From assembly GCA_946496115.1 (NCBI GenBank), contig CAMMFK010000001.1, positions 1-47,738 of the forward strand: DNA of 47,738 nt, in the 5' to 3' direction. This stretch comes from an uncultured Clostridium sp. Lineage in GTDB: Bacteria > Bacillota > Clostridia > TANB77 > CAG-508. Shown piece by piece: positions 2,267 to 34,290 of this stretch (positions are counted from its first letter, which is position 1; each line of letters starts with the position of its first letter). The position numbers were made by a program, and so were the translations under genes. The notes under the pieces are model-generated. The model did no database searches. It worked only from the letters and a program-made list of their open reading frames with translations, and was not told where the DNA came from.

Positions 2267-3016
2267 CTATACTAGCATTTCCACAATCGAAGCTATTAAA
2301 TTTAGTAGTCCATTATTTATTAATCCAATAAGTGGACTAATTATTAATGAAGCTATTGGTGTAATCCATATAATTATGAACACTATATATAATATTCTTT
2401 CATGTGATTCAAACCAATTTCTTGCATTTGTTGGTAAAATAGCTACTAATACTTTTGAGCCATCAAGTGGTGGTAGTGGTATTAAATTGAATACTCCTAA
2501 GCCTACATTCATTGATATTATGTATACAATAATAGTAGTAATAATTTCTCCTGTTTGTGAAATCATAAAGGCTGTTCCACCAAAGGCCAGTATTAAAGCA
2601 TAAACAATGCTAAATATTACTGCTAATATTAAATTCATCACAGGTCCTGCTAAAGCTACTAAGGCATTTCCTTTTCTTAGTGTAATTGTTCTGTTAAAAT
2701 TGTTAGGATTAATTTGTACTGGTCTACCCCATCCAAAACCTGCAAATAGAAGCATAAGCATTCCTATTGGTTCCATATGTTTAAATGGATTAAGTGTTAG
2801 TCTTCCTTGTCTTCTTGGTGTATCATCTCCAAGTCTATCTGCCATCCATGCGTGTGCAAACTCGTGAAATGTCATTGCTATAATAACGCCCGGTATGCTT
2901 AGCACTAATGCAAGCAGTGCACCCGGTGTATAGATATAATATCTTAAATTTTCAGCTATTAGGATGATAACTAATATTATCATCCAAGAATTCATTCCAA
3001 ATCCTCCAAAAAACAT
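2267..3016 (-). CDS. site-2 protease family (peptidase M50) membrane metalloprotease
   Basis: HEFAH zinc motif and NLIPLPPLDG motif in a polytopic hydrophobic protein. Confidence 0.85.
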   Translation of the reverse strand: MFFGGFGMNSWMIILVIILIAENLRYYIYTPGALLALVLSIPGVIIAMTFHEFAHAWMADRLGDDTPRRQGRLTLNPFKHMEPIGMLMLLFAGFGWGRPVQINPNNFNRTITLRKGNALVALAGPVMNLILAVIFSIVYALILAFGGTAFMISQTGEIITTIIVYIISMNVGLGVFNLIPLPPLDGSKVLVAILPTNARNWFESHERILYIVFIIIWITPIASLIISPLIGLINNGLLNLIASIVEMLV

Positions 3017-3173
3017 TTTATACTTTCCTCTTATATGTTATTTACATATTCTTTCTTTTAGATTTATAAATTTTATCTTTATGTTTATATAATATTAAAA
3101 ATATCCATAAATATTTTATGAATTATATAATAATTTAGTGGTCTTACTATCTTAATTCAATAGTCGCATTATT

Positions 3174-4655
3174 CTAGTTCAAAGGTTTCATTGTTGGGAA
3201 TAACAGTATATCTCTAATTGATGCTGAATTTGTAAGTAACATTATTAATCTATCTAACCCTATTCCTAAGCCACCTGTAGGTGGAAGACCAATTTCTAGT
3301 GCATTTACAAAGTCTTCGTCCATCATACCCGCTTCTTCATCACCATTTGCTCTAGCTTCTGCTTGTTTCTTTAATCTTTCATATTGGTCTATTGGGTCAT
3401 TTAATTCTGAATAAGCATTTCCATATTCTCTTCCACCAATAAATACTTCAAATCTTTCTGTTAAGCTTGGATTATCTTTCTTTCTTTTTGTAAGTGGAGA
3501 TACTTCAACTGGATAATCCATTATAAATGTTGGTTGAATTAGTGTTTCTTCTACAAATGTTTCGAAGAATTCGTTTATTATATGTCCTCTTGTTGTTTTT
3601 CCTTCTTCTAATTCTACACCTTTTTCATCAGCTAGTTTTCTTGCTTCTTCATCAGTTTTTACTTCATTAAAGTCTATTCCTGTTACTTCTTTTATTGCAT
3701 CAATCATTGAAATTCTTTTCCAAGGTGTAGATAAGTCTAAATCTAATCCTTGATAATTTATTTGTAAAGTTCCATTTACTTTCATACATAGTCTTGTAAT
3801 TATTTCTTCTGTAATATCCATCATATCGTTGTAATCTTCATATGCTGCGTATAGTTCAACATTTGTGAATTCAGGATTATGCTTAATATCCATTCCTTCA
3901 TTTCTGAAGTTTTTGCATACTTCATAAACTTTATCAAATCCACCAACTATTAATCTTTTTAAGTTAAGCTCTGGTGCTATTCTTAGGTACATATCTATAT
4001 CTAATGTGTTATGATGTGTTTCAAATGGTCTTGCTGAGTCACCTGTGATTAGATTGTTTAGTATAGGTGTTTCAACCTCTAAATAGCCTTTTTCATCAAG
4101 TATGTTCCTTAATTCTTTTATTATCATACTTCTTTTGATGAAAGTTTCTCTAACTTCCGGATTAACTATTAAGTCTACATATCTTTGTCTGTATCTTAAA
4201 TCTGTATCCTTTAAGCCATGGAATTTTTCAGGCAATGGTTTTAAAGATTTTGTAAGTAAGGTAACTTCTTTTGCGTGAATAGATATTTCACCTGTACGTG
4301 TTTTAAATACAAACCCTGTTATTCCTATAATGTCGCCGATGTCATCTTCTTTGAATTGTTTGTAGCTTTCTTCTCCTAAATCATTTATACTAACATAACT
4401 TTGGATTTTTCCTTCACCATCTTGAATATGACAAAAAGAAGCTTTACCCATTATTCTTTTAGCCATTAGTCTTCCTGCTATGGTTACGTCTTTGCCTTCT
4501 AGTTCATCATAGTTATCTATTATTTGTTTTGTTGTATGTGTTCTATTAAATTTTGTTATTTGAAAAGGGTCTTTTCCTTCTGCTCTTAATTTATCTAACT
4601 TTTCTCTTCTAACTTGCATTAGATGATCCATATCTAATTCTTGATTCTCTTCCAT
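3174..4655 (-). CDS. lysS: lysine--tRNA ligase (class II)
   Basis: 493 aa. N-terminal OB anticodon-binding region, RYRQRYVDL, class II motifs ([14 protein letters not shown]). Confidence 0.97.
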
Positions 4656-4760
4656 AATATTCAGTCCTTTCTCAACTACAAAATTTTATAATTATAACTA
4701 AGCATATTTCTTATAAAATTCTGAGTTTTTACATTTATTCTCTTTTCTAACCATGGTATT

Positions 4761-4789
4761 ATTATACCTTATATTCCACTTTTTGTAAA
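4761..4789 (-). promoter_or_regulatory. candidate lysS promoter
   Basis: Minus strand TTTACA (4784-4789), 17-nt spacer, TATAAT (4761-4766). It lies downstream of the terminator at 4801-4827. Confidence 0.45.
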
Positions 4790-4800
4790 CCTTTTTTAAC

Positions 4801-4827
4801 AAAAAGCCCCCTCAAAAGAGGGGGCTT
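4801..4827 (-). terminator. strong rho-independent terminator
   Basis: Perfect 10-bp stem AAGCCCCCUC-UUUU-GAGGGGGCUU followed by U5 on the minus strand. Confidence 0.85.
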
Positions 4828-5095
4828 CCAAAGTCTCTGTACGAATTTGCTATTGCAAAAACAAAATAGGGCAAGTAGGTCATATACCAGCTATAAGTAA
4901 GCTCATGGACCGGCCAACAATGTGGCAAAACTAGATAATGTGCCCGAGACTTTGTAATGCTTCTACATTTCTGTTTTTTACTTGGAGGTAAGTATGAGCT
5001 TTGCAACGTCGTAGGGGGTTTTGATGTATATCAAAGCTTGTACTTATAAGGTATGCTTACAGAAATGTATTTTAATCGAATAATCGATCAGCACT
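4801..5095 (-). ncRNA. unclassified structured RNA (~295 nt) bounded by a consensus promoter and a terminator
   Basis: No credible ORF. Long-range perfect complementarities pair 5059-5068 with 4965-4974, 4946-4954 with 4829-4837, and 4941-4945 with 4869-4873. There are also several local hairpins. Confidence 0.55.
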
Positions 5096-5101
5096 GGAAA
5101 T

Positions 5102-5130
5102 ATTATACCATTTGTTTGCATTTATGTCAA
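5102..5130 (-). promoter_or_regulatory. consensus sigma-A promoter of the non-coding unit
   Basis: Minus strand TTGACA (5125-5130), 17-nt spacer, TATAAT (5102-5107). Confidence 0.7.
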
Positions 5131-5200
5131 CAGTTTATTTAATTTTTTCCTCACTTCATTAGAAAACTTTGTAAGAAAAAAATAATAATATTTATTTATT

Positions 5201-6820
5201 TTATGCTGATTTTCTTAATTCTATTGCATGCATTCTTGCAGTTTCAGTTATTTCACCATTAGATATTCTAGCAACTTCATTAATTACCTCATCTTCATTT
5301 AGCTTTTTAATTTGAGTGAATGTTCTACCCTCTTTAGATATTTTACTTATATAAAAGTTTTCATCACCTTTAGCACAAATGCTTGGTTGATGTGTAATAC
5401 ATAATACTTGATGGTTTTTTCCTATTAATTTAAGTTTTTCTCCAACAGATTTTGCAGCTTTTCCACTAATACCTGTATCAATTTCATCAAATATAAGTAC
5501 TGGTGTGCTGTCTGTATTGGCAAGAACCGTTTTTATTGCAAGCATTATTCTAGACATTTCTCCACCAGATGCTATTTTAGCCAATTCTTTTTCACTTTCA
5601 CCAATATTAGTTGATATATAATATTCTACTTCGTCTGTACCATTTTTGTTAAATTCTACTTGATTTATATGCGTTATAAATGTACTATTAGGCATTTCTA
5701 AGTCTGCTAATTCTTTGTTTATTTTGCTATCTAATATTTTAGCATTTGCTGTTCTAATTTCATGCATTTTATCTGCCAAATTTTGCATTTTGCTTTCCAC
5801 TTGTGCCAGATCTTGCTTTAATTTGTTATTATATTCATCTAAATTATTTATTCTGTCTATTTCTTTTTCTGTTTTTTCTTTATATTCTAGTATTTCTTCT
5901 ACACTGTTCCCATACTTTCTTTTTAAAGAATAGATTAAATCTAGTCTTTCTTCAACTTCATTTCTTTCATTTTCATCAAAATACATATCTGAATTAAGTG
6001 AAGATATATCTCTTGAAAGTTCTTGCACTTCATAATAAATGCCTTTTAGATTATTTAATGTATCATCATACTTTTTGTCTAAATCACTTATTTTTTCTAT
6101 TGCTCTTATTGCTTCATTAATTTTATCTATTGCACCTTCTCCAAGCGATAGATCTGCTTGATTTAAGCTTTTGCCTATCTTTTCTGAATTCATAAAGAAT
6201 TTTCTTTTTTCTTCTAGCTCTTCTTCTTCGCCTGATTTTAACTCTGCGTTTTCTATTTCATCAAATTCATATTGCAGAAGGCTTAATTGTCTTTGCTTTT
6301 CTTTGTCATCCCCTAGGTTAGCTTTTAATTCCTTTTTTATATCTTGTCTTTTATTATATAATTCTTTATATTCATCTTTTACTTGAAGTAAATCTTTACC
6401 TATAAAGTTGTCTAGATATTTTATATGATGCTTTGGATTTAATATTTTTTGATTGTCATTTTGACCATGTATGTCTATTATATTGCTCATAAAATCTTTT
6501 AGCTCTGTCAAAGTTACTAATCTACCATTTATTTTGCAAGAATTTCTACCATTTGAATGGATTTCTCTACTTACTATTATATTATTTTCTATTGCTAAAT
6601 CATTGTTTGGTAAATATAAATTTAGCTCAACAAAAGAATAATCCTCGCCTCTTCTTATCATTTCTTTTGAGAATCTTCCTCCACATATTATATTAATAGA
6701 GTCTATTATTAAAGTTTTACCTGCACCTGTTTCACCAGTAAGTACATTAAAGCCTTCTCCTAGCTCAATGCTTAAATCATCTATTATTCCTATATTTTTA
6801 ATATGTAGAGTTGTTATCAT
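5201..6820 (-). CDS. recN: DNA repair protein RecN
   Basis: The true start MITTLHIKNIGII follows AGGAGG. Walker A GETGAGKT, long coiled coil, C-terminal SGGE signature and Walker B LIFDEID. Confidence 0.93.
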   Translation of the reverse strand: MITTLHIKNIGIIDDLSIELGEGFNVLTGETGAGKTLIIDSINIICGGRFSKEMIRRGEDYSFVELNLYLPNNDLAIENNIIVSREIHSNGRNSCKINGRLVTLTELKDFMSNIIDIHGQNDNQKILNPKHHIKYLDNFIGKDLLQVKDEYKELYNKRQDIKKELKANLGDDKEKQRQLSLLQYEFDEIENAELKSGEEEELEEKRKFFMNSEKIGKSLNQADLSLGEGAIDKINEAIRAIEKISDLDKKYDDTLNNLKGIYYEVQELSRDISSLNSDMYFDENERNEVEERLDLIYSLKRKYGNSVEEILEYKEKTEKEIDRINNLDEYNNKLKQDLAQVESKMQNLADKMHEIRTANAKILDSKINKELADLEMPNSTFITHINQVEFNKNGTDEVEYYISTNIGESEKELAKIASGGEMSRIMLAIKTVLANTDSTPVLIFDEIDTGISGKAAKSVGEKLKLIGKNHQVLCITHQPSICAKGDENFYISKISKEGRTFTQIKKLNEDEVINEVARISNGEITETARMHAIELRKSA

Positions 6821-6832
6821 AATTTTACCTCC

Positions 6833-6846
6833 TGAACTTCTGTTCG
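6833..6846 (-). promoter_or_regulatory. LexA (Cheo-type) SOS box in front of recN
   Basis: Minus strand CGAACAGAAGTTCA matches CGAAC-N4-GTTC(G). It lies between the -10 and the SD of recN. Confidence 0.7.
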
Positions 6847-6851
6847 TATAT

Positions 6852-6880
6852 ATTATACATACATTTGTTTGTGATGTCAA
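6852..6880 (-). promoter_or_regulatory. recN promoter
   Basis: Minus strand TTGACA (6875-6880), 17-nt spacer, TATAAT (6852-6857). Confidence 0.7.
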
Positions 6881-6933
6881 GATATTTATGCAAAAAAATA
6901 AGCATGCATTATTGCATACCTATTTTTGTATTA

Positions 6934-6964
6934 TTTTACGAAAAGGACCGTCCCCAGCGTAAAA
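6934..6964 (+). repeat. 31-nt TTTTACG-N17-CGTAAAA unit (copy 1)
   Basis: TTTTACGAAAAGGACCGTCCCCAGCGTAAAA. The first 21 nt are identical to the reverse complement of 44963-44983. Confidence 0.7.
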
Positions 6965-6966
6965 TA

Positions 6967-7488
6967 TTAAACTAATTTTAAGATAACTGTTTCTGCAGCA
7001 TCCCCTCTACGTTGACCTAATTTTATTATTTGTGTATATCCACCAACTCTACCTGTATATCTTGGTGCAATTACATTAAATAATTTATCTGTTAAGTCTA
7101 TTGGAGTACCTTCATTATCTTTTACTTTATTTAATTTTGTCATCATTTTTCTTCTAGCATTTAATCTTGATGGCTTGTCTTTTTGTCTTTTTTCCATCTT
7201 TTCTTCTTTAACAACTTTTAGGAATTCTTTTCCATTTTTGCTTTTTACTAATTCAGTTTCTTTATTTCCTTTGCTGTCACGTTTTGCTTTAACAACTTTT
7301 ACTTCAACTTCTTCAAAGTTGTCTTTTTCTTTAACAGCAAGTGCTATTAAGCTATCTACTATAGCTTTAACTTCTTTAGCTCTAGCTTCAGTTGTTTGTA
7401 TTTGCTCATGCCAAATTAGGTCTGTTGACAAATTCTTTAGCATTGCTAGTCTTATGTCAGTAGTTTTTCCTAATTTTCTATTTGCCAT
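6967..7488 (-). CDS. rplQ: 50S ribosomal protein L17 (bL17) with a large Lys/Glu-rich internal insertion
   Basis: The N-terminus (RKLGKTTDIRLAMLKNL...TTEARAKE) and C-terminus (APRY..GGYT.I.KLG.RRGDAA) are canonical L17. It is 173 aa, against about 115-130 aa usually. Confidence 0.93.
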   Translation of the reverse strand: MANRKLGKTTDIRLAMLKNLSTDLIWHEQIQTTEARAKEVKAIVDSLIALAVKEKDNFEEVEVKVVKAKRDSKGNKETELVKSKNGKEFLKVVKEEKMEKRQKDKPSRLNARRKMMTKLNKVKDNEGTPIDLTDKLFNVIAPRYTGRVGGYTQIIKLGQRRGDAAETVILKLV

Positions 7489-33931: not shown

Positions 33932-34290
33932 GGGGGTGTAAATGGTTTCGACAGTTTTTTAGAAGTATTTATAGCGAGTAGTGGATGGTTGCTTTGGCCA
34001 CTTAAAATCAAGCAAATTAAATATAAAGGCTAACGATAGAGAATTAGCTTACGCTGCTGCTTAAGTAACAGCGTCGTCTTACCCAAGAGCCTACTGCTTG
34101 GAATAAGGCGTCGATTAAAGTAGGAAACGAAGTTGCTTATTCCACTTAAGCAATGGGTAATTTAAATGGATATGAATAAAATGCTTTGTTCATTTGCTAT
34201 TTTATTTAGAATTTTAAAAATGAACTGCACTCGGAGAAGTAAATATGGAAAAATAATTGGACGCGAGTTCAACTCTCGCCACCTCCACCA
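33932..34290 (+). ncRNA. ssrA: tmRNA (SsrA)
   Basis: 5' GGGGGUGUAAAUGGUUUCGACAG, 3' GGACGCGAGUUCAACUCUCGCCACCUCCACCA. Tag reading frame 34029-34064 is GCU AAC GAU AGA GAA UUA GCU UAC GCU GCU GCU UAA = (A)NDRELAYAAA. Confidence 0.95.

Follow-up and report, generated by a model that had tools for sequence, protein, structure and literature searches.

A structured small RNA gene predicted downstream of recN in a narrow clade of uncultured gut Clostridia

The small RNAs RoxS and RsaE are widely conserved in Firmicutes and are much shorter than the 193- to 305-nt RNAs described below. These Firmicutes RNAs carry several C-rich regions for G-rich targets (PMC5419742; PMC6158497), and RoxS pairs with G-rich target sequences through its C-rich regions (PMC5419742). 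The locus considered here lies between recN and lysS on the minus strand of a 47,738-nt stretch of DNA (the window, meaning the whole stretch that was analysed) from an AT-rich, uncultured gut member of the Clostridia. The RNA encoded there resembles RoxS/RsaE in its independent transcription, its intrinsic terminator and its several C-rich motifs that are predicted to be unpaired. It differs from them in lacking sequence similarity or an Rfam RsaE match at E ≤ 10, in having a three-way junction and a second domain, in carrying the C-rich motifs within a hypervariable arm, and in its confinement to one narrow clade.

Two other kinds of system come close. With 6S RNA, which is non-essential, and with Ms1 the RNA shares a strong, constitutive-looking promoter, a length of ~200–300 nt, a structure better conserved than the sequence, and dispensability; unlike these RNAs, it has no stem closing the 5' and 3' ends, no central bubble, a separate 3' domain (in 6 of 6 homologues) and no match to their Rfam models at E ≤ 10. 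T-box and other leaders of aminoacyl-tRNA synthetase genes are similar in that the RNA stands upstream of lysS in the window, is a few hundred nucleotides long and ends in a terminator. They differ in that the RNA carries no T-box or L-box signature, a promoter precedes lysS, and the association with lysS is not conserved.

Computational analysis showed positions 5130–4801 (minus strand) to be an independently transcribed, non-coding, structured small RNA gene, the features of which are collected in Table 1. The gene very probably belongs to a real family of structured sRNAs and is not a leader of lysS. This family is previously undescribed; all members detected come from a single narrow clade of uncultured, AT-rich gut Clostridia, and each lies directly 3' of recN. 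To our knowledge, no regulatory RNAs have been described from this group of uncultured, small-genome gut Clostridia, to which the locus adds a covariation-supported and fairly large structured RNA family, although its narrow distribution limits the reach of the finding.

Table 1. Coordinates of the RNA unit and of the adjoining lysS promoter in the window.
Feature	Position	Strand	Basis or conservation
−35 hexamer TTGACA	5125–5130	−	Unchanged in 6 of 6 distinct homologues
Extended −10 TGgTATAAT (TATAAT at 5107–5102; 17-nt spacer to −35)	5102–5110	−	Promoter scan
Predicted 295-nt primary transcript; putative start site A5095, 7 nt past the −10	4801–5095	−	
P1 5' strand AGUGCU, pairing with 4961–4956	5090–5095	−	MFE fold
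P2 hairpin GAUCGA-UUAU-UCGAUU	5074–5089	−	MFE fold
P3, long irregular hairpin; base helix structurally conserved, interior hypervariable	4964–5069	−	Folds, complementarity
CCCCC, P3 apical loop	5014–5018	−	Predicted unpaired probability 1.00
CCUCC, anti-Shine-Dalgarno-like, internal loop on the 3' side of P3	4984–4988	−	Predicted unpaired probability 0.99
P1 3' strand AGCAUU, within invariant block GCAUUACA	4956–4961	−	Alignment, consensus structure
3' domain closed by P4, CAAAGUCUC (4954–4946) with GAGACUUUG (4837–4829)	4829–4954	−	Folds, complementarity
Intrinsic terminator directly adjoining P4	4801–4828	−	Present in all homologues; 3 compensatory pairs
lysS promoter TTTACA-17-TATAAT; outside the RNA unit, marks its 3' boundary	4761–4789	−	Conserved in L001 and L002, which lack the RNA

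The boundaries of the unit had been proposed in an initial annotation made from the letters alone, which placed a TTGACA-17-TATAAT promoter at 5102–5130 and a 10-bp GC hairpin followed by U5 at 4801–4827. Both elements held up. The promoter agrees with the consensus at 12 of 12 positions and carries, in addition, a TG just 5' of the −10 hexamer. TTGACA, TATAAT and the 17-nt spacing do not vary in the six versions of the RNA described below, while the letters of the spacer differ, a pattern that points to purifying selection on expression of the RNA. In the terminator, the arms AAGCCCCCUC and GAGGGGGCUU form 10 perfect GC base pairs (4827–4818 with 4813–4804) around a UUUU loop, and the U-run extends to 4801. 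A scan of positions 3000–7000 returned this site (4827–4801) as the only terminator-like one. The RNA segment also stands out in base composition, with a GC fraction of 0.39–0.42 (~40%) as compared with 0.24–0.30 in the flanks. The start site, the 3' end and the presumed abundance of the transcript are all deduced from the DNA.

The predicted transcript folds with unusual stability. Its minimum free energy (MFE) is −93 kcal/mol (z = −6.5), a value equalled by 0 of 200 dinucleotide shuffles, and the RNA without its terminator still reaches z = −5.0. The initial annotation had pointed out two long-range complementarities, 5059–5068 with 4965–4974 and 4946–4954 with 4829–4837; these are real and were recovered as matches of 11 nt at 100% (5059–5069 with 4964–4974) and of 12 nt at 92% (4946–4957 with 4826–4837). 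A further complementary pair links 5032–5046 with 4989–5003. Two helices, P1 (5095–5090 with 4961–4956) and the P2 hairpin (5089–5074), had been overlooked. In the modelled layout, P1 closes a three-way junction with P2 and P3, a 1-nt linker leads into the P4-closed 3' domain, and the terminator follows directly. In the 3' domain, a ~100-nt insertion is specific to the RNA type of the window and of L094, its closest distinct homologue. One additional match, in which RNA positions 5054–5045 are perfectly complementary over 10 nt to the −10 region of lysS (4773–4764), is not conserved in L094 and is treated as chance.

The unit had at first been labelled an orphan, which proved wrong, since homologues exist downstream of recN in relatives. 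They came from contigs retrieved for encoding a RecN 84–98% identical to that of the window. Just 3' of recN, these contigs contain five further distinct versions of the RNA, 193–305 nt in length, and the six versions are 48–77% identical to one another. The version in L094–L097 (RecN 95% identical) is 305 nt long and 77% identical to the window RNA; those in L101–L104 (RecN 90%), L108 (84%), L093 (98%) and L098–L100 (91%) measure 234, 204, 211 and 193 nt, respectively. The RNA of L119–L121 (RecN 94%) differs from that of the window at 1 of 295 positions. No family member follows recN in L114–L118 (RecN 89–91%). In L105–L107 (RecN 93%), only a pseudogene remnant is left (4618–4710 in L105), which retains the −35 with the first part of the spacer at one end and the terminator with the 3' strand of P4 at the other, the −10 and the entire P1–P3 body having been deleted. 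In L114 (3118–3415) and L117 (3118–3425), a mini unit occupies the place of the RNA after recN. It consists of a promoter, TTGACA (L114) or TTGAAA (L117) with TAAAAT, and ~30 nt beyond it a terminator, GGGGAG...CUCCCC (CUCUCC in L117), and an ABC-transporter operon, not lysS, lies downstream.

Outside this group of close relatives, the searches were negative. The RNA was absent from the recN–lysS interval and from within 3 kb of lysS in 80 of 80 genomes of related GTDB species (nhmmer/blastn), and Rfam searches of 20 of these 80 lysS loci yielded only tRNAs. Where recN and lysS are adjacent, most of these relatives have a spacer of 108–303 nt, reaching ~2 kb with intervening DNA, and no homologue was found inside it. 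In L001 and L002, the two closest of the 80, ~40 nt separate recN from the lysS promoter that they share with the window, so that the segment 5198–4798 is an insertion relative to them. The window itself contains no second copy of the RNA. Phage and plasmid collections returned promoter-like chance matches only; viral contigs gave 12 chance matches to 16-mers and 0 matches to the 18-mer conserved core; and two metagenome scans gave 0 matches and then 5 unrelated, GC-rich chance matches. Searches with a 3'-domain covariance model returned the L105 remnant (E 0.017) and members of the family, and nothing else in the window or the 80 loci. Among related species, the recN–lysS spacer is itself a variable hotspot (L003, L013, L025, L029, L030, L049): it holds a tRNA gene in L049 (2402–2473), a GC-rich 396-nt insert in L029 and an apparent small ORF, judged by eye, in L025, and several of these spacers share a recurring CCGTCCCC/TGTCCCC motif.

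Comparison of the six versions established that the structure has been maintained. Each sequence, folded independently by MFE, adopts the same P1/P2/P3/P4/terminator layout. In the homologues, the P1 5' strand AGUGCU pairs with an AGCAUU located ~100–135 nt downstream, and P2 is a short helix with a U-rich loop immediately past the P1 5' strand. A consensus was derived with RNAalifold from a MAFFT alignment of 7 rows from closely related genomes, representing six distinct sequences. The consensus contains 42 pairs and recovers P1, P2, the base of P3, P4 and the terminator. Covariation of the helices among related spacers, the check that had been suggested for this locus, was found in 17 of the 42 pairs, which show compensatory changes. 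The proportion of paired cells was 94.8%, as opposed to 37–56% when the 3' partners were slid by 1–3 columns. The covariation score of 0.424 (0.08–0.16 for slid partners; reached in 0 of 500 shuffles) is strong but not independent of phylogeny, because the rows are few and closely related and an inherited change is counted repeatedly.

Compensatory pairs occur in all five helices. In P1, 97.6% of cells are paired and a single pair is compensatory (L108 has C-G in place of U-A); compensatory pairs make up 4 of 5 in P2 and 7 of 11 in the P3 base helix; and in P4, where 100% of cells are paired, 2 pairs are compensatory. G-U pairs are frequent, in keeping with an RNA that has the sequence of the minus strand. 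The maintenance of five helices by compensatory change indicates purifying selection on RNA structure. Two sequence blocks are invariant, GCAUUACA, comprising the P1 3' strand and the linker, and UUUGG, which precedes the terminator. The sequence GGGGAGA follows the P4 5' strand in 4 of the 6 sequences.

Searches for known families likewise agreed with the initial annotation, in which no recognisable signature had been found. Rfam 15 was searched at gathering thresholds with the whole window and at E ≤ 10 with positions 4600–5300 and with the homologues L093 and L108. At gathering thresholds, tmRNA at 33932–34290 was the only match in the window; this is a full-length tmRNA gene on the plus strand (RF00023, 176.6 bits, E 2.4e-70). 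Within 4600–5300, cmscan yielded terminator-driven noise only, the best match scoring 27.8 bits against a gathering score of 55. At E ≤ 10, no Rfam family matched both the L093 and the L108 RNA, and no match was obtained to the T-box, the lysine riboswitch, SRP, RNase P, 6S or RsaE.

An mRNA or a dual-function RNA for a small protein would offer another account of the transcript, since ORFs of 20–64 aa exist on both strands. The candidates are a 64-aa ORF at 4812–5006, the 23-aa MTYLPYFVFAIANSYRDFGSPLF inside it, which was read by eye only, and a type I toxin on either strand. As had been described for the 64-aa ORF, it has no Shine-Dalgarno (SD) sequence and runs into the terminator, inside which it ends; its start codon is TTG. 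It has no homologue among 5.8e9 predicted proteins, and exact-protein look-ups for LysS, RpoA and this ORF were without record. In L094 (77% identical), the reading frame is disrupted, and domain 2, which contains most of the ORF, is deleted in L101, L108, L093 and L098. No ORF is conserved among the six homologues, either by frame or by sequence. A role as a small-protein message is extremely improbable. The locus instead has the generic attributes of an sRNA gene, namely its own promoter, its own terminator, an intergenic location and no conserved ORF.

The position of the RNA in front of an aminoacyl-tRNA synthetase gene, together with its terminator, had suggested two options, a stand-alone structured sRNA or an atypical leader or riboswitch of lysS. 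The first of these is borne out by the promoter, the terminator, the covariation in five helices and the lack of an Rfam match. For the second, in which the RNA would serve as a cis-acting leader, riboswitch or attenuator, a C-rich stretch at 5011–5019 had been pointed out as mimicking the 5' arm of the terminator, and would act as an antiterminator by competing for the 3' arm; read directly from the sequence, CCCCCU (5018–5013) could indeed pair with AGGGGG of that arm. This stretch, however, falls within the hypervariable, non-conserved interior of P3, and its antiterminator potential is not conserved. The RNA matches no T-box, L-box or other riboswitch. The candidate lysS promoter at 4761–4789, which had also been noted earlier, is real; it stands past the terminator, separate from the RNA, and is kept in genomes without the RNA. 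Downstream of the RNA in L098–L100 is a gene for a MucBP-domain protein, not lysS, and the RNA stays with recN. Most relatives possess lysS without the RNA, among them close ones in which the RNA is missing or has been deleted and lysS is kept. The non-lysS neighbour in one relative and the retention of the lysS promoter where the RNA is missing thus identify a stand-alone sRNA, and the lysS-leader reading, largely refuted, is very improbable. This removes a false lead, in that the locus is not a new lysS riboswitch. The LysS protein of the window is 90–91% identical to the LysS proteins of two MAGs. The lysS 5' untranslated region is ~70 nt longer than in L001 and L002 and includes an AU-only hairpin of ~17 bp at 4674–4727 (minus strand), the stability of which is ordinary (z −1.4).

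How the stand-alone sRNA might function is suggested by its C-rich motifs. Base pairing through C-rich loops is taken as the likeliest mechanism because RoxS/RsaE pair with G-rich targets via C-rich regions. According to this model, the RNA would act in trans: the variable P3 arm displays 1–3 C-rich or anti-SD-like motifs predicted to be unpaired, these motifs would pair with the G-rich ribosome-binding regions of mRNAs in the manner of the RoxS/RsaE C-rich regions, and the scaffold of P1, P2, P4 and the terminator would confer stability or provide a protein-binding site. Pairing of the C-rich motifs with mRNAs is put forward tentatively, as a mechanism that we consider possible but rather doubtful. 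For the combined reading of a structured sRNA family that uses C-rich base pairing in trans, our confidence falls somewhat short of even.

The variable P3 arm of every version exposes C- and U-rich stretches predicted to be unpaired. Five of the 6 homologues have C-rich motifs with predicted unpaired probabilities of 0.76–1.0. CCUCC occurs, largely unpaired, in 4 of 6, with values of 0.79–0.96 in L094, L101 and L093. Beyond CCUCC, L093 has unpaired UCCCCC and CUCC; the unpaired motifs of L098 are CCUC and CUCC; and L108 is without CCUCC, CCC being its sole unpaired C-run. In the window, UUACCUCC is exactly complementary to GGAGGUAA, which serves as ribosome-binding site for rpoA, recN and other genes, and the duplex between the CCUCC loop and GGAGGUAA is predicted at −16.4 kcal/mol, compared with −11.6 ± 1.9 kcal/mol for shuffled loops. 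Duplex prediction against the 48 translation-initiation regions of the window gave generic SD pairing only and no standout target; short C-rich motifs complement essentially every SD, which is why no specific mRNA emerges.

Certain features weigh against base pairing. A multi-helix RNA of 200–300 nt with a conserved scaffold exceeds typical base-pairing sRNAs in size and complexity and fits a protein-binding RNA equally well. Such an RNA might sequester or scaffold a protein, as 6S RNA or Ms1 does with RNA polymerase, or act as a sponge for an RNA-binding or ribosome-associated protein, a role to which, as the main rival, we assign a definite but minor probability. In a more specific form, held to be no less doubtful, the core of P1, GCAUUACA, P4 and GGGGAGA would constitute the binding site and the P3 arm would drift freely. 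The strong, invariant consensus promoter is consistent with such a role, as are the length of 193–305 nt with a conserved scaffold, the dispensability of the gene, a property shared with 6S RNA, and the location of the invariant blocks in unpaired positions or in pairs that never vary (GCAUUACA, and GGGGAGA in 4 of 6). Furthermore, the arm that would carry the seeds is the least conserved part of the RNA. On the other hand, no 6S, Ms1 or similar family matched at E ≤ 10; the 5' end has its pairing partner mid-molecule rather than at the 3' end, and no rod with a central bubble is formed; and no conserved gene for a partner protein travels along, recN being the only constant neighbour, in closely related genomes.

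A new class of modular, abundant RNAs of ~200–300 nt can also be envisaged, although we regard it as improbable. Its scaffold (P1/P2/P4, GCAUUACA and GGGGAGA) would bind the ribosome or RNA polymerase, and P3 would be a hypervariable specificity arm that is swapped under diversifying selection, e.g., against phages or competitors. If this were so, anti-SD-like sequences such as CCUCCACUCCUUUCUA of L093, which we take to resemble the 3' tail of 16S rRNA, would mimic that 3' end and would not be ordinary seeds.

Whichever way the RNA acts, its gene has an unusual history. Between the window and L119, identity is 84–94% over rpoA, rplQ, recN and lysS and 98–100% over 5200–4801, and the RNA itself is 99.7% identical. 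The reverse holds for L093, in which the flanks are 93–100% identical to the window and the RNA is a different, unalignable allele (46–66% in sliding windows, 53% over the whole RNA). A nearly identical allele within diverged flanks and different alleles within similar flanks indicate that the RNA cassette recombines between lineages. Relative to L119 and L120, positions 5400–4800 form an apparent recombination tract, 94–100% identical within recN and lysS surroundings of 84–94%. In the same comparison, identity falls to 76% over the lysS 5' untranslated region (4800–4700). The gene has been lost at least 2 times, by internal deletion in L105 and through absence in L114/L117, and its loss or deletion in several close lineages shows that it is dispensable. 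The locus thereby furnishes a clear example of an sRNA gene that behaves as an exchangeable cassette and bears on the origin, spread and death of sRNA genes. A mobile element was considered and rejected, given that no flanking direct or inverted repeats and no target-site duplications were found around the unit.

These dynamics might also reflect a fast-decaying or selfish cassette that has no current cellular function, persists by recombination between strains and is in the process of being lost. Its absence from the loci of 80 of 80 related species, the internal deletion in L105–L107, the lack of the gene in L114–L118 and the mosaic distribution of alleles are compatible with such decay, as is the faster divergence of the interior than of the coding flanks (77% versus 87% in L094). 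Nevertheless, the perfect hexamers and spacing and the compensatory changes in five helices are signs of purifying selection, and terminal repeats, target-site duplications, a second copy in the window and phage or plasmid matches are all lacking. There is only a slim chance that the RNA is a functionless cassette.

Several further observations concern the neighbourhood. The recN ORF was listed from a TTG at 6880, and its true start is the ATG at 6820 (minus strand): the family match begins at residue 21, and the ATG is preceded by a good SD, CAGGAGGUAAAAUUAUG. Just upstream of this ATG, at 6880–6852 (minus strand), lies a second perfect TTGACA-17-TATAAT promoter. The gene for ribosomal protein L17 (6967–7488, minus strand) encodes 173 aa as compared with a profile of ~112 positions, and its match is split in two, suggesting an extension or insertion of ~60 aa; the length of 173 aa recurs in nearly all relatives fetched. 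Finally, positions 130–209 of L093, upstream of recN, form a long, near-perfect hairpin that produced microRNA-precursor-like cmscan matches (best E 1.2e-4, all below gathering thresholds) and that may represent a repeat or terminate the rplQ operon.
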